DNA of 64,000 bases from Candidatus Sulfomarinibacteraceae bacterium. GTDB lineage: Bacteria; Acidobacteriota; Thermoanaerobaculia; Thermoanaerobaculales; Sulfomarinibacteraceae. Below, piece after piece: positions 509 to 63,838 of the stretch. The DNA is taken from positions 227,656-291,655 of the forward strand of contig CAWGLE010000022.1 of the NCBI GenBank assembly GCA_963823345.1, written 5' to 3'. Numbering within the stretch: position 1 is the stretch's first letter; every line of letters begins with the position of its first letter. Under the pieces are notes generated by a model, which was given only the letters and a program-made list of their open reading frames with translations, was not told the DNA's origin and did no database searches. The position numbers were made by a program, and so were the translations under genes.

Positions 509-556
509 GGAACGTTGAAACGTTCCAACGTTCAAACGTTTGAACGTTTCAACGTT
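509..556. repeat. six tandem octamers NNAACGTT, self-complementary array between convergent genes
   Basis: ggaacgtt gaaacgtt ccaacgtt caaacgtt tgaacgtt tcaacgtt read directly. The aspA stop codon (549-551) lies in the last unit. Confidence 0.9.
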
Positions 557-1967
557 GTGAGCGGTGGCGGCTGCGGCGGGTGCCGATCATGCGGGCGGGG
601 TCCATGACCGCCGCGATCTCCTCCTCGGAGAGGAGCTTTTTCTCCCGCACCAGCTCGACGATGCCGCGGTTGGTGGCCAGTGCCTCCTTGGCGAGCTCGG
701 TGGTGACGTCGTAGCCGAGCACCGGGTTGAGCGCCGTCACCACGCCGATGCTGCGCTCGATGTACTCGCGGCACACGTCCTGGTTGGCGGTAATGCCATC
801 GATGCAGTGGACGCGGAGGGTGCTCGCCGCGTTCATGAACATGGTCTGGGACTCGATGATGCAGTCTGCGATCACCGGCTCCATGACGTTGAGCTGGAGC
901 TGGCCGGCCTCCGCGGCCAGGGTCACCGCGAGATCGTTGCCGATCGCCCGGAAGCAAACCTGGTTGACCACCTCGGGGATGACCGGGTTGACCTTGCCGG
1001 GCATGATCGACGAACCCGGCTGCATCCGCGGCAGGTTGATCTCGTTGAGCCCGGCGCGGGGGCCCGATGACAACAGGCGGAGATCGTTGCAGATCTTCGA
1101 CAGCTTGATGGCGAGGCTCTTCTGACAGGACGAGTAGAGCACGAAGGGCTGGGTGTCCTGAGTCGCCTCGACCAGATCCGATGCGAGGCGGATCTCTTTG
1201 CCGGTGATTTCGACCAGGTGCTCGACACAGCGTTCGGCGTAGCCCTCCGGGGCGTTGAGCCCGGTGCCGATCGCGGTCCCTCCCATGTTGACCTCGAGCA
1301 GGACCTCCTCCGCCTCCGACAACGCGGTGATCTCGTTCTCCAGGCTTTCCGCCCAGGCGTCGAACTCCTGGCCGAGAGTCATGGGTACGGCGTCCTGCAA
1401 CTGCGTGCGGCCCATCTTGAGCACGCCCGCGAACTCCCCGCCCTTGTCGCGGAGGGCCGCCACCAGGGCGCCGAGCTCTTCGATGAGCAGGGTGTTGCCG
1501 AGGGCGATCGCCACGTGCAGGGCGCTCGGGTAGGCGTCGTTGGTGGACTGCGACCGGTTGACGTGGTCGTGCGGATCGCAGAAGCGGTAGTCGCCCTTGG
1601 CGTGGCCCATCAGCTCGAGGGCGCGGTTGGCGATGACCTCGTTGGCGTTCATGTTGGTCGAGGTGCCGGCGCCGCCCTGGATCACGTCCACCGGGAACTG
1701 GTCGTGGAGGGCGCCGCTGATGATCTCCCGGCACGCGCCCTCGATGCCGCGCAGGATTCCGTCGCTCAGCTTGCCGCAGTCGTGGTTGGCTCGGGCTGCT
1801 GCGAGCTTGATCATGGCCAGAGCGCGGATGAGCTCAGGATACTGGCTGATCGGCACCCCGGTGATGTGGAAGTTGTCGATCGCGCGCACCGTCTGGATGC
1901 CGTAGTAGGCGTCCGCGGGGACCTCTCTCTCGCCCAGAAGATCGTGCTCGACCCGGAACTCGGCCAT
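549..1967 (-). CDS. aspA: aspartate ammonia-lyase (class II fumarase/aspartase family)
   Basis: Track ORF 549..1994(-), start moved to Met10 (MAEFRVEHDLLGEREVPADAYYG). Family signature GSSIMPGKVNP is present. Confidence 0.9.
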   Translation of the reverse strand: MAEFRVEHDLLGEREVPADAYYGIQTVRAIDNFHITGVPISQYPELIRALAMIKLAAARANHDCGKLSDGILRGIEGACREIISGALHDQFPVDVIQGGAGTSTNMNANEVIANRALELMGHAKGDYRFCDPHDHVNRSQSTNDAYPSALHVAIALGNTLLIEELGALVAALRDKGGEFAGVLKMGRTQLQDAVPMTLGQEFDAWAESLENEITALSEAEEVLLEVNMGGTAIGTGLNAPEGYAERCVEHLVEITGKEIRLASDLVEATQDTQPFVLYSSCQKSLAIKLSKICNDLRLLSSGPRAGLNEINLPRMQPGSSIMPGKVNPVIPEVVNQVCFRAIGNDLAVTLAAEAGQLQLNVMEPVIADCIIESQTMFMNAASTLRVHCIDGITANQDVCREYIERSIGVVTALNPVLGYDVTTELAKEALATNRGIVELVREKKLLSEEEIAAVMDPARMIGTRRSRHRSQR

Positions 1968-2011
1968 GACTTCGTCTCCCCCTCTTCCCTGCACGCCTTA
2001 TAACACGGGGG

Positions 2012-2312
2012 GACCCACCACCCGACCATTTCGGATTTCGGATTTCGGATTTCGGATTTCCACCCCCCCCCCACCGACAATTGGCGTCCGAGTGCCCAGG
2101 GCGGGTGGGACCGCGCGCGGCGGAGGTGCCTGGCTCCCGACATGATGTTGCCCTCAACATCATGTCGGCGTGCCCGGCATCCTCTCGGGAATCGCGTGTG
2201 GAGACGGGCGCGTGCGGCGGAGGTGCCATCTTCACTCTTGTTGGATGCACTATCGCCCACGTGGGCATCGCGATGCGGGCCAACAATGGTGAAGGTGGCT
2301 CCTCCCGGGGAG
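2012..2312 (+). repeat. composite intergenic element, copy A: heptamer array, two conserved boxes, two hairpins
   Basis: (ATTTCGG)x4.7 at 2028-2060 flanked by C-tracts. Boxes ccgcgcgcggcggaggtgcc (2111-2130) and gcgcgtgcggcggaggtgcc (2208-2227). Hairpins at 2138-2167 (13 bp stem) and 2225-2299 (20 bp stem, 35 nt loop). Confidence 0.8.
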
Positions 2313-2371: not shown

Positions 2372-5044
2372 ATGAACGACCCCAAACAACGCAAGAAGCT
2401 GTACCTGATCGACGGGCCCAACATGGCGTTCCGGGCGTTTTTCGCCATCGGCGGGATGAGCAACTCGCAGGGTCTGCCCACCAACGCCCTCTTCGGCTTC
2501 ACCAATATGCTGCTCAAGCTCATCCGTGACCAGAAGCCCGACTACCTGGCGATCGCCTGGGACCCCAAAGGCGGTACCTTCCGCGACCGTGTCTTTCCCG
2601 ACTACAAGGGCACTCGACCCGACATGCCGGATGCGCTGCGCACCCAGATGCCGTACTTCGCCCGGGTCGCCGAGGCTTTCGGGGTGCCCTATCTCTGTCT
2701 CGACGACTTCGAGGCCGACGACGTCATGGGCACCCTCGCCCGGCGCCACGAGGACGAGCTCGACGTGGTCCTGGTGACCTCGGACAAGGACCTGATGCAG
2801 CTGGTGAGCGACAACGTCACCCTGTTCGACTCGATGAAGGACCGCCGGATCTCCTACCCGGAAGTGGAGGAGAAGTTCGGCTGCGCGCCCGAGCTGGTTC
2901 CCGACGCGCTCGGCATATGGGGTGATTCGTCGGACAACATCCCGGGCGTCAAGGGGATCGGGGAGAAGGGCGTCAAGGCCCTGCTGGCGCGGTGGAAAGG
3001 GCTCGACGACATCTACGCCCACCTCGACGAGGTGACTCCGCCCGGGACCAGATCCAAGCTCGAGGCCAGCCGCGACAATGCCTATCTTTCCAAGGATCTG
3101 GCGACCATCCGTACCGACGCCCCGGTGGAGGTGAGCCTCGACGCGCTGAAGCTCGACTTCCCTCCCCCCGAGGACCGCGCCCAGGAGCTCTTCGGCGAGC
3201 TCGAGTTCCGCTCCCTGCTCAAGGAGTTCGGCGGCGCGATGGAGACCGTCGACCGCAGCGCCTACCGCCTCGCCGACACCGCGGCCGCGCTCGAGGAGCT
3301 GCGCTCGACGCTTGCCGCGGCCCCACGATTCGCCATCGACACCGAGACCACGTCACTCAACGCCCTGCAGGCCAAACTGGTCGGTCTGTCCTTCTGTTGC
3401 GACGACGACGTGGCCTGGTACGTGCCGGTGGGCCACTCGACCGGGGAGACCCAGCTCGGCTGGGAGCCGGTCCGCGAGGTCCTCGGGCCGATCATCGAGG
3501 ACCCCGGCAAGGGCAAGACCGGACAGCACCTGAAGTACGACCTCAAGGTGCTCGCCAAACACGGTGTCGAGATTCGCGGGATCGACGGCGACACCCTGCT
3601 CGCCGACTACCTCCTGAGCCCGGACCGCCGGTCGCACAAGCTCGACGACCTGGCGCTGATCCACCTCAACCACAAGATGATCTCCTACGCCGAAACCGCC
3701 GGCGCCCAGGCGAGCTTTGCGGAGGTCCTGACGGCTTCGGCAAGGGACTACGCTGCCGAGGACGCCCACGTGACCTGGCTGCTCGACAATAAGCTGACGC
3801 CGCTGGTCGAGGAGCAGGGCATGGAAAAGTTGTACCGGGAGCTCGAGCTGCCTCTCATTCCGGTGCTCGCGCGCATGGAAACGAACGGCATCGCGGTCGA
3901 CCGAACCGTCCTCGACGACTTGTCCGTCGAACTGACGGCCGGCATCGCAGAGGCCGAGAAACGATGCTACGAGGCCGCCGGCGAGGAGTTCAACATCGGT
4001 TCGGTGGTCCAACTGCGCGAGATCCTGTTCGAAAAGCTCGGGCTGCCGGTGGTCAAGAAGACCAAGACCGGGGCCTCCACCAACGAGACCGTACTGCTCG
4101 AGCTCACGGTCCACCACCCGCTGCCGCAGGCGATCCTCGACTACCGGTCGCTGGTCAAGCTCAAGAACACCTACGTCGACCCGTTGCCGGGCCTCATCGA
4201 CCCGGACACCGGGCGCATCCACACCCACTACTCGCAGACCACCGCCGCCACCGGCCGGCTCGCCTCCACCGACCCCAACCTGCAGAACATTCCGATCCGC
4301 ACCGCGGAGGGCCGGCGCATCCGCACTGCCTTCGTGGCGCCGCCCGGGAGGGTGCTGCTCGCGGCCGACTACTCCCAGGTGGAGCTGCGCGTCCTCGCCC
4401 ACCTGTGCGGAGGGACCGGCGGGTTCGCCGACGCCTTCGCGCGCGGCGCCGATGTTCACGCCGAGACTGCGGCCGGGCTCTTCGGCGTCCCTTCCAAAGA
4501 CGTTACCCGGGGAATGCGGGGCATCGCCAAGGCGGTCAACTTCGGGATCATCTACGGCCAGAGCGCATTCGGGCTCGCCCAGACCCAGCGCATCTCCAGG
4601 GCAGAGGCCGCCGACTACATCGCCCGCTACAAGGAGCGCTTTCCGGAGATCGAGGACTATCGGCAGCGGACCCTCGCCCAGGCCGCGGAGCACGGTTACG
4701 TGGAAACCCTGATGGGTCGCAGGAGGCCGGTCCCGGATCTCACCAGCGGCAACTTCGCGGCGCGCTCGGCCGCCGAAAGAGTCGCGGTCAACACCCCCGT
4801 CCAGGGCAGCGCCGCCGACCTCATCAAAAAGGCCATGCTGACGGTGGATCGACGACTCCGCTTGGAGTTCCCGGGCCAACTGCTGCTGCTTCAGGTCCAC
4901 GACGAGCTCCTGCTCGAGGTGGATGAGAATCTCGCCGACGAGATCGGCGAGATGGTGCGCCACGAGATGTGCTCGGCGATGGAGCTCTCCGTACCGCTGG
5001 TGGTCGACCTCGGGACCGGGCGGAATTGGGATGAGGCGCACTGA
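2372..5044 (+). CDS. polA: DNA polymerase I
   Basis: Track ORF 2081..5044, start moved to MNDPKQRKKLYLIDGPNMAFRAF (ATG 2372). 5'-nuclease N-terminus, DYSQVELRVLAH and QVHDELLLE polymerase motifs. Confidence 0.95.
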   Translation: MNDPKQRKKLYLIDGPNMAFRAFFAIGGMSNSQGLPTNALFGFTNMLLKLIRDQKPDYLAIAWDPKGGTFRDRVFPDYKGTRPDMPDALRTQMPYFARVAEAFGVPYLCLDDFEADDVMGTLARRHEDELDVVLVTSDKDLMQLVSDNVTLFDSMKDRRISYPEVEEKFGCAPELVPDALGIWGDSSDNIPGVKGIGEKGVKALLARWKGLDDIYAHLDEVTPPGTRSKLEASRDNAYLSKDLATIRTDAPVEVSLDALKLDFPPPEDRAQELFGELEFRSLLKEFGGAMETVDRSAYRLADTAAALEELRSTLAAAPRFAIDTETTSLNALQAKLVGLSFCCDDDVAWYVPVGHSTGETQLGWEPVREVLGPIIEDPGKGKTGQHLKYDLKVLAKHGVEIRGIDGDTLLADYLLSPDRRSHKLDDLALIHLNHKMISYAETAGAQASFAEVLTASARDYAAEDAHVTWLLDNKLTPLVEEQGMEKLYRELELPLIPVLARMETNGIAVDRTVLDDLSVELTAGIAEAEKRCYEAAGEEFNIGSVVQLREILFEKLGLPVVKKTKTGASTNETVLLELTVHHPLPQAILDYRSLVKLKNTYVDPLPGLIDPDTGRIHTHYSQTTAATGRLASTDPNLQNIPIRTAEGRRIRTAFVAPPGRVLLAADYSQVELRVLAHLCGGTGGFADAFARGADVHAETAAGLFGVPSKDVTRGMRGIAKAVNFGIIYGQSAFGLAQTQRISRAEAADYIARYKERFPEIEDYRQRTLAQAAEHGYVETLMGRRRPVPDLTSGNFAARSAAERVAVNTPVQGSAADLIKKAMLTVDRRLRLEFPGQLLLLQVHDELLLEVDENLADEIGEMVRHEMCSAMELSVPLVVDLGTGRNWDEAH

Positions 5045-5045
5045 G

Positions 5046-5312
5046 GACCCACCCGCCCGCCCATTTCGGATTTCGGATTTCGGATTTCGGATTTTCCGCC
5101 CGACCTCCCACCGAAAATTGGCGCCCGGGTGCTCAGGGTGGGTGGGACCGCGTGCGGCGGCGGTGCCATTTTCAACATTGTTGGACACATGGTCATCCAC
5201 GTCGGCAGGGATTCTCGAGCCAACAATGTTGAGGGTGGCTCCGCCCGGGAACCCACCCGAGGCAGCGATTCGTGGCCGACGGCCGAACTGGTAGGGTGGG
5301 TGGTGGTCGGCC
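5046..5312 (+). repeat. composite intergenic element, copy B
   Basis: (ATTTCGG)x4.7 at 5063-5095 flanked by C-tracts. Box ccgcgtgcggcggcggtgcc at 5148-5167. Hairpin 5165-5239 (20 bp stem, 35 nt loop). An identical extra box sits at 5382-5401. Confidence 0.8.
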
Positions 5313-5455
5313 ATCGGCCACTCGCTGGCCAGGGTTGGTCGCGGCGGCCGCAGGCCGCCAGCAAGCGCGTGCGGAAACGTGCCGCGTGCGGCGGCGGTGC
5401 CTGAAAGCCGGGACGCTTGACGCCACCCCCGGGTCAGCGTACGGTCGCCGGGACA

Positions 5456-5652
5456 GAGCGGTCACCATGAGGTGCCCGAGGGAAGCCGGTGAGAATCCGG
5501 CGCGGCCCCCGCCACTGTAACCGGGGACGCACCGTTCACGGAAGGGTCGAGTGTCGGCCCTTCCAGCCACTGACCGAGCAGGTCCGCGAGGGCCCATCGG
5601 TTGGGAAGGCGAGCGGTCGCGGCTGATCCGGGAGCCAGGAGACCTGCCGCTC
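5456..5652 (+). promoter_or_regulatory. cobalamin (B12) riboswitch
   Basis: gggaagccggtgagaatccggcgcggcccccgccactgtaaccgggga core, then agccactg, gggaaggc and B12-box gagccaggagacctgcc. P1 is gagcgg/ccgctc. It lies 27 nt upstream of the btuB-like start. Confidence 0.9.
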
Positions 5653-5678
5653 TGAATGAATGGAACGGGAGGTTTCAC

Positions 5679-7572
5679 ATGTCCGATCGGTATTTGGCCT
5701 ACATATCTCACCAGGTATCTGCGTTCATCATCGTCCTGTCGGCGGCCACGTCGTGGGCCCAGTATGCACCCCCGCCAACGGCCCAACCATTCACCGGCGA
5801 GGTCACCGTCACCGCCACCGGCGTCGAAACCGAGGTCGAGGAAGCGCCGACCGCGGTCACGGTCATCACGCGCGACGAGATCGACGACGCCCAGACCGGG
5901 TCCGTGGCCGAGATGCTTCGCCGGGTCCCCGGGCTGACCGTGGTGAGTTCAGGCGACCAGGGCAAGGTGACCTCGGTCTTTACCCGCGGCACCGGCTCCA
6001 ACCAGACCCTGGTCATGCTCGATGGAGTTCGCCTCAACTCGCCCTATTTCGGCGGATTCGACTGGAGCCGGCTCTCGACCGCCGGTCTGCGCCAGGTGGA
6101 GGTCGCTCGCGGACCCTACTCGGCGTTGTGGGGCGCCGACGCGGTCGGCGGCGTCATCAACCTCATTCCGGCGCGGTCGCGCTCCGGCTTCAATGGCCGC
6201 TTCTTCGGCGAAGGCGGTTCGGACGGCCGGCAGCGGCTGGAGGCCGACCTCGGGTGGGGCGGCGAGACGTTCGACATCTACGCCTCGGGGTTCGACGGCC
6301 AGAGCGACGGCAGCCTTCAGAACTCCGATTATTCGACGACTCAACTCCTGGTCACCGCCGGCTGGAGCTTCGGCGACCGCGGCAGCCGCATCGGTGTCGT
6401 CGTCCAGGACCTCGAGGGCGAGACCGGGATCCCCTTCGCCGTACCGGGCAACCCGACGCCGGAGCGAAGGCAGAACAGCCAGCAGACTCTGGTGGCCGTT
6501 CCCATCAACATCTTCTTCAGCGATTCGTGGAACGTCGAGCTCACCGGAGCGTCCGTGGACGGCAGTTTCGACTTCTCGGACCCGGACGACCCCTACTTCA
6601 CGTACTCGAACACCGAGACCGACTCCACCCAGTTGCGCCTCGCGAGCAACCACCGCTTCACCAGGCACGTCTTCAGCTGGGGCGGCGAGTGGCGGGAGGA
6701 CGAGGTCTCGGATGCCTCGAACTACGGCACCACCCTCGACAACGAGACCGTGGACGTCACGAGCTTCTTCGCCCAGGACGTGTGGAACATGAGCTCGGCG
6801 GTGCGGCTTCTGCTCGGTGTGCGGTGGGACGACTCCGACCCCTGGGGATCGGAGACCTCGCCCCGCGCCGATATCGGGTGGAAGCTCAGCGACACGGTCG
6901 AGGTCCGTGCGGGCTACGGCGAGGCCTTCCGCCCGCCGTCGCTCGGCGAGCTCTATTTCCCCTTTTCGGGGAATGCCGACCTGCTGCCGGAAACTTCGCA
7001 GTCGACCGACATCGGCCTCACCTACACCACCGCCAAACGCAAGTCCAGGTGGCAGGTGACCGCGTTCAGCACCGATCTCGAAAACCTCATCGAGTACGAC
7101 TTCACCACCTCCGCCAATGCCAATATCGGTTCCGCCACCATCCGCGGCGCCGAGCTTTCGTGGGACTTCCCGCTCGGGCGCCGGGGCGCGTCGTTTCTCC
7201 AGGCAACCTACCTCGACACCGAGGACGATCTCGGCCAGACCGTTGCTGCGGCGGCCGGAGTGGAGCGGATCGTGGACCCTCTACGGCGCTTTTTCGAAAC
7301 GTCTCAACGGTGATCTCACCGTGGTCTACGTGGGTTCCCGGCACGACGTCGACCCGCTGACATTCGAGCGCGCCACGGCCGACAGCTCCACGACCGCGAG
7401 CATCGCCCTCGCCTACGCCGCATGGCACGGGGTCGAGATCACCGGCAGGGTGCTCAACCTCGCCGACGCCGACTACCAGGAAGTCCTCGGCTATCCCGCT
7501 CCCGGGCGGCAGTACGTGGTCGGCCTCAGGCTCGGCGTCGACAACCTGCAGAGGCGGCAGAAACGGCCGTAG
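5679..7572 (+). pseudogene. btuB: TonB-dependent outer-membrane receptor (BtuB-like), frame broken near 7233-7240
   Basis: ORF 5601..7313 (start at Met27, RBS gggagg) carries the plug domain (DEIDDAQTGSVAEMLRRVPGL) and barrel. The C-terminal strands (LNLADADYQEVLGYPAPGRQYVVGLRL) continue in frame 1 (ORF 7117..7572). Confidence 0.8.
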
Positions 7573-7761: not shown

Positions 7762-8466
7762 ATGAAGAAGACATTCCTGGTGTTCGGAGTCGTGGCCTGT
7801 GCGACCCTCCTGGTCAACCCGGCCATGGCTTGTGATGGCAAGCAGGCGGCGCAGGTCAGCAACGACGGGACGTCGTGCGCGAAGGCCGCAACCCAGCAGG
7901 CGAGCAACGACGGGACGTCGTGCGCGAAGGCCGCAACCCAGCAGGCGACAAACGACGGGACGTCGTGCTCAAAGGCGGCTGTCAAGCAGGCCTCGAACGA
8001 CGGTTCGGGCTGCGCCACGTCGGCCGCCAAGGCCGCCTACGCCGAGGCCCTCGAGGCGACCGGCTGCGAGAAGACCGCGCAGACTGCCGCGAACAACGCC
8101 ATGGCCGAGAACGTCTACGCCAAGAGCTACGCGGAGAGCGGCTGCACCAAGACCGCGCAGAAGGCGGCTTACGACGCGGTGTACACGTCCACCAGCTGCG
8201 AGAAGTCTTCGGCTGCCGCCGCGACCCACGCGGTTGCTCAGGCCTCCTACAAGGAAACCCTGGCCAACACCGGCTGCGAGAAGACCGCTCAGGCGGCCTA
8301 CGCCAGCGTGACCACGACCGCCGGTGCCAGCTGCGCCACAGCTACTGCCAAGGCCGGTTGTGACAAGGCGGACTGCGACAAGGCCGATTGCGACAAGGGC
8401 GCCGAGACCTCTTCGGATGCGCCCGCCAGCACCGAGGTCAAAATGGCCTCGAACGATAACGGCTGA
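7762..8466 (+). CDS. secreted Cys-periodic, Ala-rich repeat protein, function unknown
   Basis: RBS aaaggag and signal peptide MKKTFLVFGVVACATLLVNPAMA. Repeats SNDGTSCAKAATQQA x3-4 (two 45-nt DNA copies are identical), GCEKTAQ-type x4, CDKAD x3. An intrinsic terminator follows. Confidence 0.75.
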   Translation: MKKTFLVFGVVACATLLVNPAMACDGKQAAQVSNDGTSCAKAATQQASNDGTSCAKAATQQATNDGTSCSKAAVKQASNDGSGCATSAAKAAYAEALEATGCEKTAQTAANNAMAENVYAKSYAESGCTKTAQKAAYDAVYTSTSCEKSSAAAATHAVAQASYKETLANTGCEKTAQAAYASVTTTAGASCATATAKAGCDKADCDKADCDKGAETSSDAPASTEVKMASNDNG

Positions 8467-11792: not shown

Positions 11793-12066
11793 CTGTCCCG
11801 ACCGAGGCAGCGAAACCACGTCATTCCCTGTCATCCCGACCGAGGCAGCGAAACCACTTCATTTCCTGTCATCCCGACCGAGGCAGCGAAGCCACTTCAT
11901 TTCCTGTCATCCCGACCGAGGCAGCGAAGCCACTTCATTTCCTGTCATCCCGACCGAGGGAGCGAAGCGACTGAGCGGAGGGATCTGGGGGGTGGTTTCA
12001 GGAACGCCACTGCCTGCAACCCCCACCCAGATCCCTCGGCTCGCTGTGCTCGCTCGGGATGACATT
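11793..12066. repeat. 38-bp tandem repeat (about 5 units) ending in an imperfect inverted repeat
   Basis: Unit ctgtcatcccgaccgaggcagcgaagccacttcatttc starts at 11828, 11866 and 11904 (partial at 11793, divergent at 11942). The inverted partner cccagatccctcggctcgctgtgctcgctcgggatgaca lies at about 12022-12064. Confidence 0.85.
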
Positions 12067-13951: not shown

Positions 13952-13975
13952 GGCGTCATGCTAGCAGAACGCTCA

Positions 13976-14087
13976 GAGTTCTCAGTTTTGAGTTTTGAAT
14001 TTTGAATTTTGAATTCCCACCCACCCCCCCACCGACGGGAATGTCCAAGTGCTCAGGTTCGGCGGAACCGCGTACGGCGGAGGTGCC
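13976..14087 (+). repeat. composite intergenic element, truncated copy C
   Basis: Octamer array (ttttgaat-type) at 13976-14016, C-tract cccacccacccccccaccga, box ccgcgtacggcggaggtgcc at 14068-14087. Confidence 0.75.
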
Positions 14088-14100
14088 GGCGAAGGGCTCC

Positions 14101-20243: not shown

Positions 20244-20246
<3 letters not shown>

Positions 20247-20278
20247 ATTTTGAATATTGAATTCTGAATTTTGAATTC
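20244..20278. repeat. AT-rich tandem array (tgaatttt-type, 7-8 nt period) plus C-tract
   Basis: tgaattttgaatattgaattctgaattttgaattc followed by ccgcccttcctccccc. Confidence 0.8.
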
Positions 20279-20334
20279 CCGCCCTTCCTCCCCCGTTTCA
20301 GTGAATGGGGGTCGTCAGGTGGCGGCTGGGGTTG

Positions 20335-23612: not shown

Positions 23613-23632
23613 CCCACCCACCCTTCCCTCTG

Positions 23633-23749
23633 ATTTCGGATTTCGGATTTCGGATTTCGGATTTGTCCCCCACCCACCCGACGTTCAGAAGTGGTGGGAG
23701 GGCGGTCGGGAAATCCGAAATCCGAAATCCGAAATCCGAAATCCGAAAT
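23633..23749. repeat. inverted pair of heptamer arrays, (ATTTCGG)n ... (CCGAAAT)n, between the regulator and kinase genes
   Basis: Left array 23633-23664, right array 23709-23749, about 44-nt C/G-tract loop. The regulator stop codon lies in the last unit. Confidence 0.9.
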
Positions 23750-24450
23750 CACGGGCTGCTCCCGCTGTGCTTGACGTACACGTAGCCGACGCCCCGCACT
23801 GTCTTGATCCGCTCCCCGCCTTCCGGCGAACGGCCCAGCTTGCGGCGGAGATTGGAGAGGTGGACATCGAGGCTGCGATCGTAGGCACTCGAACGGCGGC
23901 CCAGTGCCTGGCGCGACAGCTCGTCCCGACCGACCACGGTTCCCGCCTCGCGGAGGAGGACCTCCAGGATCATGAACTCGGCCCCGGTGAGTTCGACCTC
24001 GCGGCCGCCGCAGCGGACCTCCCTGGCCCCGGGATCCAGCTGCACGTCGCCGACCGAGTAGGACATCGCGCCATCGTCCGCGGGTTCCTCCGCAGTCCTG
24101 CGGAGAATGGCGCGGATCCTCGCCACGAGCTCTCGGGGGTTGAAAGGCTTGGCGAGATAGTCGTCCGCACCCATCTCGAGGCCGACGATCCTGTCGACGT
24201 CCTCGCCGCGAGCGGTCAGCATGATCACGGGGACCTTCGACCGCTCGCGGATACGGCTGAGGACCGCGAACCCACCGAGTCCCGGCAGCATGACATCAAG
24301 GATCACCAGATCCGGATCGTCGTCGAGGCAGCGGACAACCCCGGTAACGCCATCGTGAACGGCAGCCACTTCCAGCCCTTCACCCCGCAGATACTCGCTC
24401 ACGAGATCGCAGAGATCGGTGTCGTCGTCGATGATCAGGACCCTCGTCAT
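23749..24450 (-). CDS. OmpR-family response regulator (CpxR/BaeR-like)
   Basis: Receiver domain (VLIIDDD...LDVMLPG) and winged-helix C-terminus (VRGVGYVY). Confidence 0.9.
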   Translation of the reverse strand: MTRVLIIDDDTDLCDLVSEYLRGEGLEVAAVHDGVTGVVRCLDDDPDLVILDVMLPGLGGFAVLSRIRERSKVPVIMLTARGEDVDRIVGLEMGADDYLAKPFNPRELVARIRAILRRTAEEPADDGAMSYSVGDVQLDPGAREVRCGGREVELTGAEFMILEVLLREAGTVVGRDELSRQALGRRSSAYDRSLDVHLSNLRRKLGRSPEGGERIKTVRGVGYVYVKHSGSSP

Positions 24451-36156: not shown

Positions 36157-36194
36157 GTTTCGCCTCCGGACCGACGGCGGGCGGGTTCAGCTAC

Positions 36195-37210: not shown

Positions 37211-37265
37211 TGGATGCAGGATGCATCTTGCATCCTGTGACCTGTGACCTTCATCCTGCATCCTG
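37211..37265. repeat. heptamer arrays (GGATGCA)2 followed by five TGNNNCC-type heptamers, partly inverted
   Basis: ggatgca ggatgca tct tgcatcc tgtgacc tgtgacc ttcatcc tgcatcc. The G-tract ggggtggg lies about 20 nt upstream. Confidence 0.85.
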
Positions 37266-37337
37266 TATTCGCGGCGGTGGTTGACTGCGCGCAGTGCCGA
37301 CTGTATACACGTTGAGCCTGAGGAGGCCGTCCAGGAC

Positions 37338-37955
37338 ATGATTCTCGACATCGACCCCGTTGAACCGCAGCCGTGGCTGCTGGCGCGCGCGGCACAGGTC
37401 CTGCGCGACGGGGGCATCGTCGTCATGCCCACCGACACGGTGTACGGCCTCACCTGCGGCATCACCCATCACGACGCGATCCAGCGGCTGTACAAGCTCA
37501 AGGACATGGACCCCAAAAAACCTCTGTCCATCCTGGTCGCCGACATGAACACGATCGGGCGGTATGCCAAGGGAGTGTCGACGCCGGCCTTCCGACTGCT
37601 GAAACGCGTTCTGCCGGGGCCCTACACCTTCATCTTCGAAGCGAGCTCCGAAGTCCCCAAGATCATGCTCCGTAAACGGAAAACGATCGGCATTCGAATG
37701 CCGGACAACCCGATCGCCCTCGCCCTGCTCGGCGAGCTCGGCGAGCCCCTTCTCAGCTCGTCGATCCGCGACCCCGAGCACGACTTCGTCAACGACCCGG
37801 ACGAGATCGATCGCTCGCTCGGCAATCGGGTCGAGATGGTGATCGACGGCGGCGTCCTGCTGCCGGTCCCCTCGACGGTCGTCGACATGTCGGGCGATGA
37901 ACCGGTGTTGATCCGCGAGGGCAAGGGCGACCTCGCCACCCTGGAGCTGTTCTAA
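37338..37955 (+). CDS. tsaC: L-threonylcarbamoyladenylate synthase (YrdC/TsaC type)
   Basis: RBS aggagg. MILDIDPVEPQP...VVMPTDTVYGL YrdC motif. About 205 aa. Confidence 0.85.
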   Translation: MILDIDPVEPQPWLLARAAQVLRDGGIVVMPTDTVYGLTCGITHHDAIQRLYKLKDMDPKKPLSILVADMNTIGRYAKGVSTPAFRLLKRVLPGPYTFIFEASSEVPKIMLRKRKTIGIRMPDNPIALALLGELGEPLLSSSIRDPEHDFVNDPDEIDRSLGNRVEMVIDGGVLLPVPSTVVDMSGDEPVLIREGKGDLATLELF

Positions 37956-38007
37956 CGCAAAAACGTTGAAAGGTTCAAACGTTTGAACGTTGAAACGTTC
38001 CAACGAC
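37952..38007. repeat. seven tandem octamers NNAACGTT-type
   Basis: ctaacgca aaaacgtt gaaaggtt caaacgtt tgaacgtt gaaacgtt ccaacgac. It overlaps the tsaC stop and the last 11 codons of the convergent GT4 gene. Confidence 0.9.
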
Positions 38008-40253: not shown

Positions 40254-40293
40254 GGCGAAACCTCCGGCGGCAAAAGCCGGAGACAGGGTAGCT

Positions 40294-40472
40294 CGGATTT
40301 CGGATTTCGGATTTCGAATTTCGAATTTTTCACCCGCCCACCCCGAGAGCTGGAGAGGCCAACGGCACCCGACGAATGTGGGCCCAACACCCCACCCTCC
40401 CTCAGGGCTGAGGATGGGAAACGGGGGAGGGTGGTTGGGAAATCCGAAATCCGAAATTCGAAATTCGAAATC
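40294..40472. repeat. inverted pair of heptamer arrays (ATTTCGG/ATTTCGA ... CCGAAAT/TCGAAAT) with about 107-nt G/C-tract-rich spacer
   Basis: Left array 40294-40330, right array 40438-40472, in the divergent DegT-like/ugd promoter region. Confidence 0.9.
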
Positions 40473-40522
40473 TCCGTTTGCTACCATGATCCAGCGACTT
40501 CGGGTCGCCTTCGGGAGTACAC

Positions 40523-41850
40523 ATGCACATCTGCGTCGTCGGCACCGGGTACGTGGGGTTGGTTACGGGCGCCTGTCTGGCGGATTTCGGGAACAGCGTG
40601 ACCTGTGTGGACAAGGACGAGGCAAAAATCGCCAAGCTCCACGAAGGCGTGATGCCGATCTACGAACCGGGGCTTGACACCCTGGTCGAAAAAAACGCGA
40701 AGGCGGGACGGCTGCAGTTTTCGACCGACCTGGCGCCCGCCGTCAAAGAAGCGCTCGTCATCTTCATTGCAGTCGGCACCCCGCCGAAGGATGACGGCTC
40801 CGCCGATCTTTCCTATGTGATCCAGGTGGCCGAGTCGATCGCCGACAACCTCAACGGGTACAAGGTGGTGGTCACCAAGTCGACGGTTCCCACCGGTACG
40901 GGACAACTCATCGAACGGATCATCGGCGAACGAAGCTCGGGGGAAAACCCGTTTTCGGTGGTCTCCAACCCGGAGTTTCTCCGCGAAGGTTCCGCGATCG
41001 CCGATTTCATGCGCCCGGACCGGGTCGTCATCGGCGCCCGCGACACCCAGGCCGTGGCCATCATGAAGGACATCTACTCGCCGCTCTATCTGATCGAGAC
41101 CCCGTTCGTGATCACCAACGTGGAGTCGTCCGAGCTCATCAAGTACGCCTCGAACGCCTTTCTCGCGACCAAGATCACCTTCATCAACGAGGTCGCGGAG
41201 CTGTGCGAACGGCTCGGCGCCGACGTCCACCACGTTGCCAGGGGGATGGGGCTGGACAAGCGGATCGGGCCGAAGTTCCTCCACCCGGGTCCCGGGTACG
41301 GCGGATCGTGCTTCCCCAAGGACACTCAGGCCCTGACGGAGATCGCCCGTGAGGCCGGACGACCGTTCGAGATCGTGGAGACGGTGTCGCCGTCAACGAC
41401 CGCGTCAAATCCGGCGCCATCGAGCGCGTGCGCTCGGCCATGGGAAACGACGTGTCGGGGAAGCTGGTGGCGGTCCTCGGTCTCAGCTTCAAACCCGAAA
41501 CCGACGACATGCGCGACTCCCCGTCGATCCCCTTGATCGAGTCCCTCGTCGGCGACGGAGCGACCGTCAGGGCCTTCGACCCCGAGGCCATGGACAATGC
41601 CCGACAGCACCTTCCGGAGGATGTCGCATACTGCGCCGACTCCTACGAAGCGGTCGCCGGCGCCGACGCCCTGGTCATCGTCACCGAGTGGAATCAGTTC
41701 CGGTCCCTCGACATGAAGCGCATCCACGCGGCGCTCAAGCACCCCATCGTGATCGATCTGCGCAACGTTTACGATCCACAGCGGATGAAGGAACAGGGTT
41801 TCGACTATTTCAGCGTCGGACGGGCGGCAGCGAACCTGCCGTTCGCGTGA
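40523..41850 (+). pseudogene. ugd: UDP-glucose 6-dehydrogenase, frame broken near 41386-41388
   Basis: ICVVGTGYVGLVTGACL NAD motif and catalytic GGSCFPKD. After FEIVETV the expected VAVNDRVKSGAIERVRSAMGNDVSGK... is read in the frame of ORF 41428..41850 (one missing base). Confidence 0.85.
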
Positions 41851-41896
41851 CCCGATCGGCTTGACGCCGGCCCGGGCACGCACGACACTGAGGCCG

Positions 41897-42298
41897 ATGG
41901 CAAACGACGACCCGGTCCGACTCGACATCTGGCTCGACGTGTCCTGCCTGTTCAAGACCCGCTCTCAGGCTCAGACCGCGTGTCAGCGCGGGCAGGTCGA
42001 GGTCAACGGCGACCGCGGCAAAGCCCACCGCGCCGTCCGCGCCGGCGACACCATCGTCATCCACCTTCCGGGCGGGCGGCGTCGGACCATCGAGGTCGTC
42101 GAACTGGAGCGAACCAACGTGTCCAGGGCGCGAGCCCGCGAGCTCTACATCGACCACACGCCGCCACCGACCCCGGAAGAGCTCGAGCTGCGGCGGATGC
42201 AGCGCCTCTCCGCCCCACCCCGGAGAGAAAAGGGCGCGGGGGCGCCGAAGAAGCGCGAACGCCGTGATCTCCGCCGGCTGAAAGAGGAGTGGGACTGA
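41897..42298 (+). CDS. S4-domain RNA-binding protein (Hsp15/RluA-N-like)
   Basis: RLDIWLDVSCLFKTRSQAQTACQRGQVEVNG S4 motif with a basic C-terminal tail. The start could be 41861 or 41897. Confidence 0.6.
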   Translation: MANDDPVRLDIWLDVSCLFKTRSQAQTACQRGQVEVNGDRGKAHRAVRAGDTIVIHLPGGRRRTIEVVELERTNVSRARARELYIDHTPPPTPEELELRRMQRLSAPPRREKGAGAPKKRERRDLRRLKEEWD

Positions 42299-46933: not shown

Positions 46934-47008
46934 TGGCTGGGGCGGCAGGATTCGAACCTGCGAATGCCGGATCCAAAGACCGGAGGCTTACCACTTGCCG
47001 ACGCCCCA
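46934..47008 (-). tRNA. tRNA-Gln (anticodon UUG), CCA encoded
   Basis: Minus-strand read tggggcg tc ggc aagtggtaa gcc t ccggt cTTTGGa tccgg cattc gcagg ttcgaat cctgc cgcccca g cca folds as a cloverleaf, closely resembling E. coli tRNA-Gln. Confidence 0.9.
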
Positions 47009-53753: not shown

Positions 53754-53798
53754 GAATCCACTGTAAGCGACTGCACGTTTCTCGGCTACCCTTGCCTC

Positions 53799-54767
53799 GT
53801 GAGAGACCTGACGGACGCCCTCAAGAAGCGATCTCTCGAGGAGGGTTTCGACCTTTTCGGCGTCGCCTCGGCCGGGGCCGCCGACTCTGCGGCCGCCCTC
53901 GACCGATGGATCGCGGCCGCCATGCACGGCGAGATGGATTACATGGAGCGGACCCGGCACCTGCGGACGGACCCCGGGCGCCTCCTCGCCGGGTGTCGTT
54001 CGGTGATCGCGGTGGCCATGAGCTACCACACGAGCCTCCCTTCGTCCGCGACGCTGCGTGCCGGTGACGGACGGGTGTGGGTCTCACGCTATGCGTGGGG
54101 TCGCGACTACCACCGGATCCTCAAGAAGAAGCTCGTTCGCCTGGGGCGGTGGCTGGGGGAATGCCGGCCGGGCTGCGGTTGGAGGGCCTGCGTCGACACC
54201 GCCCCGGTCCTGGAACGGGAGTGGGCGGCGAGGGCGGGTCTGGGGTGGATCGGGAAGAACACGATGCTGCTCAACCGACAACTCGGCTCCGAGCTCTTTC
54301 TCGGCCTTCTGCTCACCGACGTCGACCTCGAACCGGATCGGCCGCGGCCCGAGCATTGCGGCACCTGCACCGCATGCCTCGACGCCTGCCCGACGCAGGC
54401 ATTCGCCGGACCGCGGGTGCTCGACGCCCGGCGCTGTGTCGCCTATCTGACCGTGGAGCACGGTTCGGAGATCCCGGCCGAGCTCGCCGGTGGGATGGGC
54501 GTCATGGTGGCCGGCTGTGACATCTGCCAGGAGGTCTGCCCGTGGACGCAGCGCGCGCCGACGGACCTCCACCCGGAGTTCGCGCCCCACCCCGATCGCA
54601 TGCATCCGCGCCTGGCGGACCTCGAGTCCTTGACCGAGGAAGGCTATCTCCGGTGGCGCCGAGGCAGCCCGCTCAACCGCATCTCGTACGAGCAGTTCCG
54701 CCGAAATCTCGCGGCGGCGCGGCGCAATCAACCGCCAGCGAAGGAGGTGGCGCCGCCTATTTCTTGA
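53799..54767 (+). CDS. queG: epoxyqueuosine reductase
   Basis: Only the last 322 codons of ORF 52332..54767 (GTG 53799). CGTCTACLDACP and CDICQEVCPW 4Fe-4S motifs. KNTMLLN. Confidence 0.85.
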   Translation: MRDLTDALKKRSLEEGFDLFGVASAGAADSAAALDRWIAAAMHGEMDYMERTRHLRTDPGRLLAGCRSVIAVAMSYHTSLPSSATLRAGDGRVWVSRYAWGRDYHRILKKKLVRLGRWLGECRPGCGWRACVDTAPVLEREWAARAGLGWIGKNTMLLNRQLGSELFLGLLLTDVDLEPDRPRPEHCGTCTACLDACPTQAFAGPRVLDARRCVAYLTVEHGSEIPAELAGGMGVMVAGCDICQEVCPWTQRAPTDLHPEFAPHPDRMHPRLADLESLTEEGYLRWRRGSPLNRISYEQFRRNLAAARRNQPPAKEVAPPIS

Positions 54768-57083: not shown

Positions 57084-57104
57084 GCAGGGAGGGTACCACG
57101 GGAG

Positions 57105-57238
57105 AATTCGGATTTCGGATTTCGAATTTCGGATTTCGAATTTGGGACTTGGGATTTGGGATATTCCACCCACCCCTTACCGATAACGCAAAACTCAAAG
57201 CCCAAAACTCAACACTCAAAACTCAACACTCAAAACTC
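57105..57238. repeat. three adjacent heptamer arrays (ATTTCGG/ATTTCGA; TTTGGGA; AAACTCA/ACACTCA) around a CCACCCACCCC tract
   Basis: 57105-57143, 57144-57162 and 57190-57238, in the divergent nhaC/recO region. Confidence 0.9.
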
Positions 57239-57260
57239 CTGGCTCGGCTACCATGGGCCG

Positions 57261-57902
57261 GTGCCGACAATCGACGACGACGCACTGGTCCTCGACCACC
57301 ACCCGTATCGCGACCGGCACCTGATTCTCGCGGTGCTCACCCGCAGCACCGGAGTGCAGCGCGGGGTCCTGCGGCGCGCGCGCGGCGGCAAGGTCCCGGC
57401 GGCAGCGGCGACCCAGGTGCTGTCACACGTTCACGTGACCCTCTTTCAGCGGCCGCAGTCAGAGCTTGCCGATTTCCGCCGGATCGAGCTCGTCACCAGT
57501 TCGTTCCCGATCGCCCGCGATCTCGCCACCTCGGGCGCAGGGGCGGTGGTGGCCGAGCTCCTGGCCACATTCTGCCCTCTCGGCGAACCGGCCGAGCGTT
57601 CCTTCCGGCTCGGGGTCTCTGCCCTCGAGGCGCTGTTGTCGGGGCAATCCGCGCAGGTGGTGGTGGCGTATGTCCAGTACTGGACCCTCGCTCTCGGCGG
57701 CGTGCTCGCGGACCCGGCGGCCATCACCGACGCCCTCGGCGTGGACGGTGCGGATTTCCTCGCGACGTGCCGCCGGCTGCCTCTCGCCGACGTCGCCGGC
57801 CCGGTGCCGTCGCGGACCGCTGGCTGGCTTGACCAGCGGGTCCGCGAGGAAGCCGAAAGGCCCCTCCGGGCTCTCGGCTTCTTCCGTTCGATGACAGGGT
57901 GA
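57261..57902 (+). CDS. recO: DNA repair protein RecO
   Basis: GTG start. VPTIDDDALVLDHHPYRDRHLILAVLTRSTGVQRGVLRRARG is an OB-fold N-terminus typical of RecO. The rest of ORF 56292..57902 is antisense to nhaC. Confidence 0.75.
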   Translation: MPTIDDDALVLDHHPYRDRHLILAVLTRSTGVQRGVLRRARGGKVPAAAATQVLSHVHVTLFQRPQSELADFRRIELVTSSFPIARDLATSGAGAVVAELLATFCPLGEPAERSFRLGVSALEALLSGQSAQVVVAYVQYWTLALGGVLADPAAITDALGVDGADFLATCRRLPLADVAGPVPSRTAGWLDQRVREEAERPLRALGFFRSMTG

Positions 57903-62944: not shown

Positions 62945-63741
62945 CGTCGTCCTTCTTCCCGGGCAGGGAATTCCTCCGTTTCGCAGTCGGCGTCGGATTT
63001 CGCAGCCAGTTCCGGCGCGAGGTCCGACACCAACCGCCGAACCTCGTCGGAGTAACCCCTCCAGTTTCTGTTGACCAGGTCGGGGCGTCTGGTTACCGTC
63101 GCCGCGACGGCAGCCTCCAAGCGCCACCGGCGAATCGCCTCGTGGTTGCCGGAGAGTAGCACCTCCGGTACCGGCCGCCCTTCAACCTCCGGCGGTCTGG
63201 TGTAGCTCGGATGATCGAGCAGGCCGCGTTCGAAGCTGTCGGCGGCCACCGACTGCGGGTCACCGACCACCCCCGGCACCAGCCGGGCCACGACCTCGAT
63301 CACCGCCATCGCCGCGACCTCGCCGCCGCCGAGGATGAAGTCGCCCAGCGACACCTCTTCGACACGCGAGATCTCGAACACCCGTTCATCGAAACCCTCG
63401 TAGCGGCCGCACAACATGATGAGTCTCTTCTCACCCGCGAGTTCTTCCGCAAAAGCCTGATCCAGGACCCGGCCTCGCGGACCGAGGGCGATCATCCGCG
63501 CAGGCTCTCCCCTCGACCCGACCTCACGCAGGGCCTCGAGGACCGGCGGCGCCTGCAGCACCATGCCGGCGCCCCCACCGTAAGGCTCGTCGTCGAGCTG
63601 TTTCCACTTGTTGTCGGCCCACTCCCGCAGATCGTGCGCCTCGACGGCGACCACGCCGCGCTCGATCGCCTTGCCGAGCACGCCGGTGGTCCGGAACGCT
63701 TCGAACAAACGGGGGAAGATGGTCAAAACATCAAAGTGCAC
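62941..63741 (-). CDS. trmD: tRNA (guanine37-N1)-methyltransferase
   Basis: GTG start. HFDVLTIFPRLFEAF, YGGGAGMV, LLSGNHEAIRRWR. Confidence 0.9.
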   Translation of the reverse strand: MHFDVLTIFPRLFEAFRTTGVLGKAIERGVVAVEAHDLREWADNKWKQLDDEPYGGGAGMVLQAPPVLEALREVGSRGEPARMIALGPRGRVLDQAFAEELAGEKRLIMLCGRYEGFDERVFEISRVEEVSLGDFILGGGEVAAMAVIEVVARLVPGVVGDPQSVAADSFERGLLDHPSYTRPPEVEGRPVPEVLLSGNHEAIRRWRLEAAVAATVTRRPDLVNRNWRGYSDEVRRLVSDLAPELAAKSDADCETEEFPAREEGRR

Positions 63742-63790
63742 AATCAGTCGTCCTCATTCATCGCGACGGTTCAGCGGAGGGCGCGCGCCC

Positions 63791-63838
63791 TTCAACGATT
63801 CAACGTTCCAACGTTTCAACGTTCTAACGTTCTATCGA
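63791..63838. repeat. six tandem octamers (TTCAACGT-type)
   Basis: ttcaacga ttcaacgt tccaacgt ttcaacgt tctaacgt tctatcga, between rimM and trmD. Confidence 0.9.

Follow-up and report, generated by a model that had tools for sequence, protein, structure and literature searches.

Extragenic repeats of enterobacteria and pseudomonads include the REP sequences, abundant intergenic mosaics of a few modules that can form long hairpins (BIME, REPIN) and vary between strains; a REP has no internal periodicity, is marked by a conserved GTAG head, occurs mainly in 3' regions that are transcribed, and owes its mobility to RAYT transposases. Strictly periodic arrays are typified by the cyanobacterial short tandemly repeated repetitive (STRR) sequences, whose named units we take to be CCCCAGT, TTGGTCA and CAACAGT. 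A dispersed family of A+T-rich heptanucleotide arrays occurs in a 64,000-nucleotide stretch of DNA from a Candidatus Sulfomarinibacteraceae bacterium (Acidobacteriota; GenBank assembly GCA_963823345.1, contig CAWGLE010000022.1, positions 227,656 to 291,655), hereafter the window, and is the subject of this report. STRR had been named as its sole precedent in a preliminary description of the window; this was too narrow, as prokaryote-wide long simple sequence repeats (LSSRs), the GGGAATC arrays of Xanthomonas (PMC4692102) and the TAACTGA arrays of Beggiatoaceae (PMC4679880) precede it too. A prokaryote-wide survey, as relayed in a later paper, found heptanucleotide repeats to be the commonest long simple repeat class in most genomes (Mrazek 2007, in PMC4679880), and polymerase slippage favouring 7-nt units is the origin that it is cited as proposing (Mrazek 2007, in PMC4679880, PMC4692102). 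The GGGAATC arrays of Xanthomonas and the GGGGA(T/C)T (GGGGAYT) arrays of Nostoc are intergenic, in some cases inverted, associated with G-runs and variable between species (Rehm et al. 2015, PMC4692102). In marine Beggiatoaceae, TAACTGA arrays of 2-6 copies lie mostly just upstream of start codons and are oriented with the downstream gene (MacGregor 2015, PMC4679880); they precede unrelated and housekeeping genes and are common to distant phyla (PMC4679880). The heptads bound by omega (ParB of pSM19035) are contiguous 7-bp units, direct and inverted, of which at least four are needed in succession for full activity (PMC9499535), and the hmw1A and hmw2A promoters of Haemophilus influenzae contain 7-bp tandem repeats with strain-variable copy number (PMC8262952).

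The arrays of the window are here proposed, at a rough probability of 0.45, to be concertedly evolving heptanucleotide microsatellite palindromes that would serve as the upstream half of promoters driven by a -10 element in a genome rich in G+C. The proposal draws on the observed anatomy, polarity, abundance, modal length, -10 adjacency and arm complementarity of the arrays, on the way they persist at orthologous promoters while the unit sequence varies freely, and on their turnover between strains. The genome is 66% G+C (63-71% in the window), and the arrays within it are 54-65% A+T. Perfect heptamer arrays of at least three units number six in the window, whereas 100 sequences simulated with a first-order Markov model contain 0.0 on average; at periods 5, 6 and 8-12 the window holds no perfect array of at least three units. 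Every window array lies outside called genes or at a gene edge, the rough coding fraction being 0.85. The CCCACCC-type tracts that had been said to abut the arrays are seen by direct reading, and CCCNCCC/GGGNGGG motifs are concentrated about 15-fold beside heptamer arrays (22 of 82, in 1.8% of the window, vs 1.5 expected).

A metagenome scan with the TsaC protein provided 58 loci of relatives at 64-94% amino-acid identity; joined with acidobacterial genome loci, these form a set of 72 non-redundant loci (476 kb), whose genes were called with a home-made codon-usage caller. Arrays catalogued in this related DNA, with polarity and position relative to start codons tested, are mostly intergenic: Tandem Repeats Finder (TRF) reports 159 arrays of period 7, of which 144 are intergenic, compared with 27 and 15 arrays of periods 8 and 6, respectively, and heptamer arrays reach a density of about one per 3 kb. 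Copy number has a median of 4.6 units and array length is peaked, most often at ~32-33 bp (47 of 112 arrays measure 31-34 nt), with the same length mode in loci from other phyla. Neighbouring arrays no more than 300 nt apart are inverted in 39 of 47 pairs and direct in 4, and 33 of the 39 inverted pairs show at most one mismatch between the unit and the reverse-complement unit of the other arm. In 31 of 36 inverted pairs the G-richer arm comes first (5') and the C-richer arm second (3'), regardless of the orientation of the flanking genes; the palindrome centre tends to pass from C-skewed to G-skewed; the basic anatomy reads 5'-(G/T-richer array), C-tract, short centre, G-tract, (C/A-richer complementary array)-3'. 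The preliminary description had reported an order of G-tract, array and start codon on the sense strand of adjacent genes; this order holds at the seven genes that it named, however it reflects a palindromic element with fixed internal polarity that is read outward and keeps the same polarity in every gene context. At these genes the gap from array to start codon is 60 nt for the aspA-like class II lyase, 24 nt for the KdsC-like HAD hydrolase, 20 nt for the histidine kinase, 40 nt for DegT, 50 nt for ugd, ~80 nt for NhaC and 72 nt for tsaC. By gene context, divergent gaps hold 47 arrays (in 29 of 84), convergent gaps 24 (20 of 81) and tandem gaps 41 (30 of 192). The AACGTT octamers, formerly counted with the same family, are a separate, self-complementary 3'-end class; octamer arrays favour convergent gaps (11 of 20).

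The outward edge of the arrays carries a promoter-like signal. Among start-facing arrays of the related DNA, a TAnnnT hexamer begins no more than 14 nt past the array in 26 of 76 cases vs 5.8% of the intergenic background, a 6-fold enrichment. In the window an array abuts a -10-like box at the DegT, ugd, NhaC, recO, kdsC-like and aspA-like genes: GCTACCCT stands directly past the array facing DegT, GCTACCAT past those facing ugd and recO, and GCTAGCAT past that facing the kdsC-like gene. The motif GCTASCMT has five matches in the window, four of them directly past arrays and ahead of gene starts. The arrays occupy ~-15 to -50 of the promoters inferred in this way; it is suggested that the outward, G-poor arm usually abuts the -10-type hexamer and fills this interval in a promoter without a canonical -35, and that two such promoters placed back to back would yield the full palindrome. 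A consensus scan of 36000-42000 returned no sigma-70 site, missing even the conserved tsaC promoter (TTGACT, 17 nt, TATACA), and no sigma-54 or extracytoplasmic-function (ECF) type motif was seen by eye in or beside the arrays. At three genes (recO, the kdsC-like gene and one that starts at 53799 and has no array) the box ends 6 nt ahead of the start codon, a geometry that fits leaderless transcripts; some of the -10-driven promoters may thus be leaderless. Several genes (13958-13951, 57249-57263 and 53785-53801 in the window; loci L018 and L093) have a -10-like hexamer (consensus GCTACCNT, or TATACT) whose end is 6-8 nt before the start, and no Shine-Dalgarno sequence, and across the related loci 27 of 387 called genes have this geometry vs 2.4% by chance, which suggests that leaderless mRNAs are frequent in the lineage.

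Two orthologous sites display what is conserved and what drifts. The tsaC promoter (TTGACN, 17 nt, TATACA) is kept in almost all relatives; directly upstream of its -35, members of the clade with at least 81% TsaC identity carry inverted arrays whose heptamer differs by locus (GGATGCA, CAGGGTA, CGGATGC, CAAGATC, ATCGCT, AAACTCA, ATCGAGA or GGATACC), and no array was seen at this site in the clade of 64-74% TsaC identity. Downstream of the tsaC stop codon the relatives vary as well, with AACGTT octamers, TTCTCAA/TTTTGAA plus CCCACC, GCAGGAT, GCTGGAT, or a different hairpin element. Between DegT and ugd, about 16 relatives share one layout: DegT start, leader, -10 box (reverse complement), array, G/C-rich centre, complementary array, TTTGCTAACAT or TTTGCTACCAT, then the ugd leader, which contains a conserved hairpin between that box and the ugd start codon. 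At least five unit families fill this layout (GGATTTC, GAATTCG, GAATTAG/GAATGAG, GCTATGA, GAGTTTT), and the two arms always match each other. The palindrome sits between the two -10 boxes and is thus outside the transcripts of both flanking genes; that its form is conserved without its sequence would therefore reflect either the DNA itself or a mutational mechanism that produces it, rather than an RNA structure. Among relatives at 66-68%, L161 and L174 are without arrays and L168 has a single left-hand array.

Unit sequence and copy number change rapidly: a comparison of related strains found whole-cassette or one-unit differences at 99.3-99.7% identity. The Logan contig L001 is 99.25% identical to the window over 4.7 kb and does not differ from it in the arrays at 37211 and 37952. 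Between DegT and ugd, by contrast, it carries another cassette; the replacement starts exactly at the array edge and takes in both arms, so that (CGGATTT)5 ... (GAAATCC)5 of the window corresponds to (AGGAATG/T)5, CCGCCCACCCC ... (AATTCCT)n. The arrays at 37211 and 37952 are also unchanged in L241, from a third sample, and are identical in three strains that are ~0.6% diverged. In the JGI contig L201, whose response-regulator gene is 99.7% identical, the counterpart of the palindrome at 23632-23750 has 4.7 ATTTCGG units instead of 5.7, and its centre differs, is longer and ends in a GGCGGAGGTGCC module (a full-text literature search for GGCGGAGGTGCC gave nothing relevant). At 97.7% identity in tsaC, loci have 6 vs 4 GCAGGAT units; at 95.9% identity the number of CAGGGTA copies varies in each of the two arms; and L123 and L124 have 4/6 vs 5/10 units. 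The A/T-rich DegT/ugd families AAATCCG, AATTCCG, AATTCCT and CATTCCT are one or two substitutions apart, so that concerted evolution (substitution plus homogenisation) and the exchange of cassettes are equally plausible. The KdsC-like, ugd and DegT proteins gave no record when looked up as exact sequences; strain comparisons were therefore confined to four array sites.

It is hypothesized that the arrays work as DNA rather than RNA, providing an A/T-rich stretch that is easily deformed or prone to cruciform formation where two polymerases start back to back. Replication slippage favouring 7-nt units would act together with template switching or gene conversion between arms and between loci to create and homogenise them; those copies that lie at the 3' ends of genes or in convergent gaps might then be by-products or structural hairpins. 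A further suggestion, considered unlikely, is that a protein reading DNA in a 7-bp register, such as a cooperative ribbon-helix-helix omega-like factor or a nucleoid-associated protein, uses the arrays as a platform. Such a protein would need ~4-5 contiguous heptads (~33 bp) and would coat the DNA upstream of -10 boxes at hundreds of promoters, leaving as its footprint the modal length, the polarity and an unvarying register to the -10 box. If so, Thermoanaerobaculia-type Acidobacteriota would have an unrecognised global promoter architecture, with the divergent palindrome as a supercoiling- or protein-controlled switch.

Several observations weigh against a promoter function. The TAnnnT boxes are presumed to be active -10 elements at the level of a consensus and from its conservation. 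No array unit contains a good TTGACA match, and those ahead of tsaC, at ~57% G+C, are located farther upstream than a canonical -35, so that a UP-element or -35 role is not general; the promoter function suggested in the preliminary description is favoured by the association with -10-like boxes. Arrays are missing from the tsaC site in four members of the clade of at least 81% identity, and because some relatives lack them at the tsaC or the DegT/ugd site the arrays must be dispensable there. In convergent gaps, where no promoter is expected, lie 24 of the 112 intergenic arrays, about one fifth, for which a promoter role cannot account. After a stop codon, 37 of 72 arrays begin no more than 22 nt away, extending right up to the stop. 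The variant units of the DegT/ugd cassette in the window are not mirror-symmetric, and the complementarity of the arms could arise from a mutational mechanism alone. Finally, orthology among many of the counted loci means that the counts lack independence, which the statistics overstate.

The strongest rival is possible though doubtful: the arrays would be neutral or selfish by-products, generated by slippage in unconstrained intergenic DNA, with 7-nt loops escaping mismatch repair and hairpin-templated switching producing the palindromes, and the promoter link would merely mirror where free intergenic DNA lies. Arrays crowded against stop codons, presence/absence polymorphism at the orthologous tsaC and DegT/ugd sites, and units whose sequence drifts freely are all in keeping with it, as is the attribution of a prokaryote-wide heptamer excess to polymerase slippage in the survey as cited (PMC4679880, PMC4692102). 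The array-less L122 has a single TACAGGG where its relatives have CAGGGTA arrays, which suggests the birth of an array in place, and triplets of control heptamers are also found in viral contigs. Simple slippage would, however, not be expected to produce a polarity that is the same in 31 of 36 pairs or a G/C-tract core that recurs consistently, nor a length distribution that is peaked instead of geometric. The 6-fold enrichment of -10-like hexamers directly past the arrays, and the persistence of DegT/ugd arrays on both sides in all ~16 relatives despite sequence change, likewise favour the promoter proposal over a by-product origin.

Distinctly unlikely as a general account is an action at the RNA level, by which the palindromes would be stem-loops (terminators, RNase III sites or REP/BIME-like mRNA stabilisers) and single G-poor arrays would be unstructured 5'-leader translation enhancers. 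In its favour is the complete palindrome at 23632-23750, which lies inside an apparent response regulator-histidine kinase operon, 20 nt before the kinase start, and folds very strongly as RNA (-82 kcal/mol, z = -9.25 vs shuffles); its 51-nt arms are 86% complementary and are laid out as (GATTTCG)x4.7, CCCCCACCCACCC, an 11-nt loop, GGTGGGAGGGCGG and (GAAATCC)x5.9. AACGTT octamers and many heptamer arrays lie at 3' ends or in convergent gaps, arrays of the Acidobacteria metagenome-assembled genome (MAG) SZAS-13 stand 3-5 nt before ATG codons, and TAACTGA offers a precedent (PMC4679880). For the operon-internal palindrome and the AACGTT octamers at 3' ends an RNA-hairpin role is plausible. The commonest context, on the other hand, is between two divergent -10 boxes, where the palindrome is transcribed by neither flanking gene; this excludes the 5'-UTR RNA element of the preliminary description for divergent-promoter palindromes. 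The polarity (U-rich arm, hairpin, A/C-rich arm) is also the reverse of an intrinsic terminator. Rho-independent termination was accordingly rejected: the T-rich arm precedes the hairpin, most pairs are in divergent gaps, and a consensus terminator scan of 36000-42000 found 2 sites vs 4.2 in shuffles, none at an array.

Highly unlikely is a non-autonomous mobile mosaic element of the MITE/REPIN/BIME type, in which arrays, G/C tracts and GGAGGTGCC hairpin modules would be copied together by a transposase. The swapping or insertion of whole cassettes between the 99.3-99.7% identical strains agrees with this idea, as do a limited repertoire of unit families common to several genomes, modules that recur in varied combinations in the window and in Sulfomarinibacteraceae MAGs, and the segmental duplication of an array with its modules at 5039-5249. 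Terminal inverted repeats, target-site duplications and element ends are not definable at the tsaC and DegT/ugd orthologous sites, where the arrays look evolved in place (AAATCCG, AATTCCG, AATTCCT and CATTCCT being single substitutions apart), and an associated transposase was not seen, though no search was aimed at one. Least credible are contingency (phase-variable) loci, in which slippage would switch or tune adjacent genes as in the hmw promoters: copy number does differ between close strains (5.7 vs 4.7, 6 vs 4, 4/6 vs 5/10) and hmw1A supplies a heptanucleotide precedent (PMC8262952), but the arrays have a median of 4.6 units (typically 4-5) vs 13-24 in hmw1A constructs and strains (PMC8262952), their neighbours are housekeeping genes (polA, leuS, recO, tsaC, the aspA-like lyase), two arrays are invariant in three strains, and an array that adjoins the -10 box can gain or lose distal units without a change in local promoter geometry. 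An assembly artefact was rejected, as arrays recur in independent short-read contigs (L001, L241), in the JGI contig L201 and in related-species MAGs from several independent assembly projects; CRISPR arrays were rejected on the contiguity of the 7-8 nt units, which have no spacers, and coding repeats on the anatomy and the recurrence in independent assemblies.

Within the window, TRF recovers every array of the preliminary description at the coordinates it gave, intergenic or at gene edges: ATTTCGG at 2028-2060, 5063-5094, 23632-23664, 40293-40328 and 57107-57162, its complement at 23710-23750 and 40439-40472, AACTCAA at 57185-57238, TGCATCC at 37222-37265, and period-8 AACGTTNN octamers at 511-556, 37961-38005 and 63791-63831. 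The octamer period claimed for two further arrays was wrong, TRF giving period 7 at 13976-14016 (GAGTTTT/TTTTGAA) and 20244-20277 (TGAATTT); period 8 is restricted to the three NNAACGTT arrays. Genes neighbouring the arrays were assigned by Pfam to the class II lyase (aspA-like), KdsC-like HAD hydrolase, histidine kinase, response regulator, DegT, UDP-glucose dehydrogenase (ugd), NhaC and RecO.

Putative divergent promoters frame three of the window elements. The compact GGATGCA/TGCATCC palindrome at 37211-37265 (z = -3.06) is located between the divergent core promoters of 3HCDH (putative -10 at 37146-37151, minus strand) and tsaC (putative -35 at 37281-37286 and -10 at 37304-37309). The palindromic cassette at 40293-40472 lies between the predicted -10 boxes of DegT (40285-40290, minus strand) and ugd (40482-40487, plus strand) and consists of (CGGATTT)x5, CACCCGCCCACCCC, a centre, GGGGGAGGGTGGTTGGG and (GAAATCC)x5; its DNA fold is -43 kcal/mol (z = -4.19 vs shuffles). 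The ugd reading frame (region 40523-42298) stops at 41536, past the central domain, leaving 337 aa in which Pfam finds the N-terminal and central domains only; the C-terminal domain appears to be in another frame, which may be a frameshift or a sequencing error and, if so, would explain why the exact ugd protein is absent from the record. Between the divergent NhaC and recO genes, the arrays at 57105-57238 (TRF and direct reading) belong to two different unit families, one per arm: (ATTTCGG/ATTTCGA)x5.5, (TTTGGGA)x2.7, CCACCCACCCC and (AAACTCA/ACACTCA)x7. A -10-like TACCCT at 57090-57095 (minus strand) stands 9 nt past the array facing NhaC, and a -10-like TACCAT at 57249-57254 (plus strand) ends 6 nt ahead of the recO GTG.

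At 2028, 5063 and 13976 the arrays are single, and behind each come a C-tract and a linker of ~64 nt, conserved and with GCGGCGGAGGTGCC at its end; this plus-strand module, at 2061-2130, recurs after the arrays at 5096-5167 and 14017-14087 and is also present in the Sulfomarinibacteraceae MAG L018. The array at 2028-2060 (ATTTCGG, 4.7 units) reads on the minus strand as (CCGAAAT)n toward the aspA-like lyase gene, with C-tracts at 2008-2027 and 2061-2075 on direct reading and a TATAAG -10-like box at 1997-2002 (minus strand), 25 nt past the array. That at 13976-14016 (GAGTTTT/TTTTGAA, 5-6 units) reads on the minus strand as (AATTCAAAA-type)n toward the KdsC-like gene, has its C-tract at 14016-14033, and is followed by the -10-like box TGCTAGCAT at 13958-13965 (minus strand), 6 nt ahead of the ATG. 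The two copies that had been described as pointing antisense into polA and leuS are in fact at gene 3' ends: the strandless array at 5063-5095 (ATTTCGG, 4.6 units) lies directly 3' of the polA stop codon, within a duplicate of the polA upstream region, and that at 20244-20278 (TGAATTT, 4.9 units) overlaps the leuS stop codon in a convergent gap and is followed by a C-tract/G-tract hairpin at 20278-20325 (z = -2.1). The polA upstream non-coding region at 2004-2309 (array, C-tract, 64-nt linker and GGTGCC hairpin B) is duplicated 3' of the polA stop at 5039-5249, over ~210-300 bp at 76-88% identity, with ~96 nt (hairpin A) deleted; the copy stands ~200 nt upstream of a cobalamin riboswitch. The self-complementary NNAACGTT octamer arrays are all strandless and at 3' ends: 509-556 (6 units) in a convergent gap (z = -5.7), 37952-38007 (5-6 units) between the stop codons of tsaC and of a convergent glycosyltransferase gene, and 63791-63838 (5 units) 3' of the stop codon of a minus-strand gene (z = -4.6).

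A second, longer repeat module is common to the window and the Sulfomarinibacteraceae MAGs. This multi-copy element consists of GCGTGCGGCGGAGGTGCC followed by hairpin A (TGGCATCC...GGCATCCTCTCGGGAAG) or by the ~90-nt hairpin B (ATYTTCAMTATTGTYGG...CCAACAATGNTGAAGGTGGCTCCTCTCGGGAAGCGCG), the two hairpins often being in tandem and often after a heptamer array and C-tract. It is found in the window at 2110-2320, 5147-5260, 5381-5401 and 14067-14100, and in L018, L070, L093, L101, L121, L123, L125, L131, L137 and L141; its core motif has 34 matches in the 476 kb at no more than one mismatch, some of them chance matches within genes. The two hairpin B copies of the window differ by compensatory changes (z ~ -3.8), the stem of the element holds a perfect Shine-Dalgarno sequence (GGAGGTG), and Rfam gave no match to it; a small RNA family not yet recognised and an element of the ERIC/MITE type are candidate identities. 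AACGTT octamer and heptamer arrays stand side by side in L020 (1236-1335), in L018 (1547-1690) and 3' of tsaC in L123, L124, L129 and L130, and in L018 an AACGTT array replaces the hairpin after GGTGGAGGTGCC. The modules look interchangeable on these grounds, which suggests that they are parts of one mosaic system.

For the arrays and adjoining hairpins Rfam holds no curated family: at gathering thresholds the whole window matches only a cobalamin riboswitch and a tRNA, and at E-value thresholds 1950-2400 gives chance-level matches only. The riboswitch (RF00174, 90 bits) lies at 5442-5665 on the plus strand, upstream of the gene at 5679-7313, with a GCGGCGGCGGTGCC motif at 5388-5401 just 5' of it; the tRNA-Gln (anticodon TTG) at 46934-47008 (minus strand) is the sole tRNA of the window. 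Longer repeats were also noted. The 38-nt tandem repeat TCCCGACCGAGGCAGCGAAGCCACTTCATTTCCTGTCA at 11796-11972 (4.7 copies, 96% matches) lies in a convergent gap and is not CRISPR, having no spacers; it is directly followed by a 43-nt inverted repeat at 11960-12055. The open reading frame at 7762-8466, which has 45-nt tandem repeats (2.8-4 copies) and 54/78-nt spaced repeats at 7851-8030 and 8026-8309, appears to encode a repetitive protein.

Heptamer arrays are not confined to this lineage. A scan for (ATTTCGG)x3 in one genome per species found at least 119 loci, which include Verrucomicrobiota, Planctomycetota, Chloroflexota, Bacteroidota, candidate phyla (Patescibacteria) and several Acidobacteriota; among the matches listed, ATTTCGG arrays of at least three units in unrelated phyla share a length mode of 31-33 nt. 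Sequence flanking the window arrays, G/C tract included, has matches in MAGs assigned to Thermoanaerobaculia and Candidatus Sulfomarinibacteraceae, which, with the longer module common to the latter, points to a Sulfomarinibacteraceae-like origin of the window. Among viral contigs, 24 loci contain ATTTCGG triplets vs 8 and 6 for two control heptamers of the same composition, so ATTTCGG is favoured only modestly, and an orientation test over all phyla was noisy (60 vs 28). SZAS-13 carries very dense arrays, up to 6 per 8 kb, without the G/C tract and often 3-5 nt before ATG. The arrays have practical consequences as well: they break short-read assemblies (L001 terminates within an array that L241 fails to reach by ~40 nt), and they could be strain-typing markers for uncultured sediment Acidobacteriota.

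Compared with described systems, the window arrays belong to the general heptanucleotide LSSR/STRR-like class, and it is their function that is argued for conditionally here. They share with that class strict 7-nt tandem units, an intergenic and dispersed position, many copies and several units per genome; they differ in their acidobacterial lineage, in short arrays sharply peaked at ~4.6 units, and in inverted unit-complementary pairs with fixed polarity, a C-tract/G-tract core and adjoining -10-like boxes. The literature searched contained no description of inverted pairing, polarity, G/C core or -10 adjacency for STRR, and a full-text search for the ATTTCGG array found unrelated human primer sequences only and no bacterial paper. 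None of the three units that we presume to be the named STRR units matches the listed array unit families. In Xanthomonas and Nostoc every unit holds a G-run and the array itself is a candidate quadruplex (PMC4692102), whereas the window units are A/T-rich and G-poor on the gene-sense strand, have their G-runs in a separate tract and coexist as many families; membership of the G-quadruplex heptamer class was rejected, as ATTTCGG, TGAATTT, AAACTCA and the other units are without G3 runs. TAACTGA is a single unit with one indirect repeat vs 169 direct sets and a proposed action in the 5' leader (PMC4679880), in contrast to the many units of the window family, which form mostly inverted pairs and in the best-resolved cases lie upstream of the -10 box. 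With REP/BIME, the window-type arrays share imperfect palindromes in inverted pairs, set in a mosaic with other motifs; no GTAG-type head was evident in the array sequences inspected. The four-heptad minimum of omega is close to the 4.6-unit median; omega has one consensus heptad, a plasmid location and a known cognate protein (PMC9499535), while the window-type arrays comprise at least eight unit families, are estimated to occupy hundreds of sites on the chromosome and have no candidate protein. The hmw repeats, of 13-24 units between two promoters of one surface-adhesin gene whose expression is tuned by their length (PMC8262952), differ from the short arrays beside housekeeping genes seen here. 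By analogy, the arrays may resemble REP/BIME mosaics and hmw repeats in function and omega heptads in geometry. They differ from the general class in palindromic coupling with fixed polarity, a separate G/C tract, many unit families and the -10 association. Heptanucleotide repeats were already reported in 2007 as the commonest long simple repeats, and this lineage offers an unusually structured and informative case of them; conserved architecture, drifting unit sequence and cassette turnover between strains more than 99% identical are joined in it, and that combination makes the question of why seven testable.

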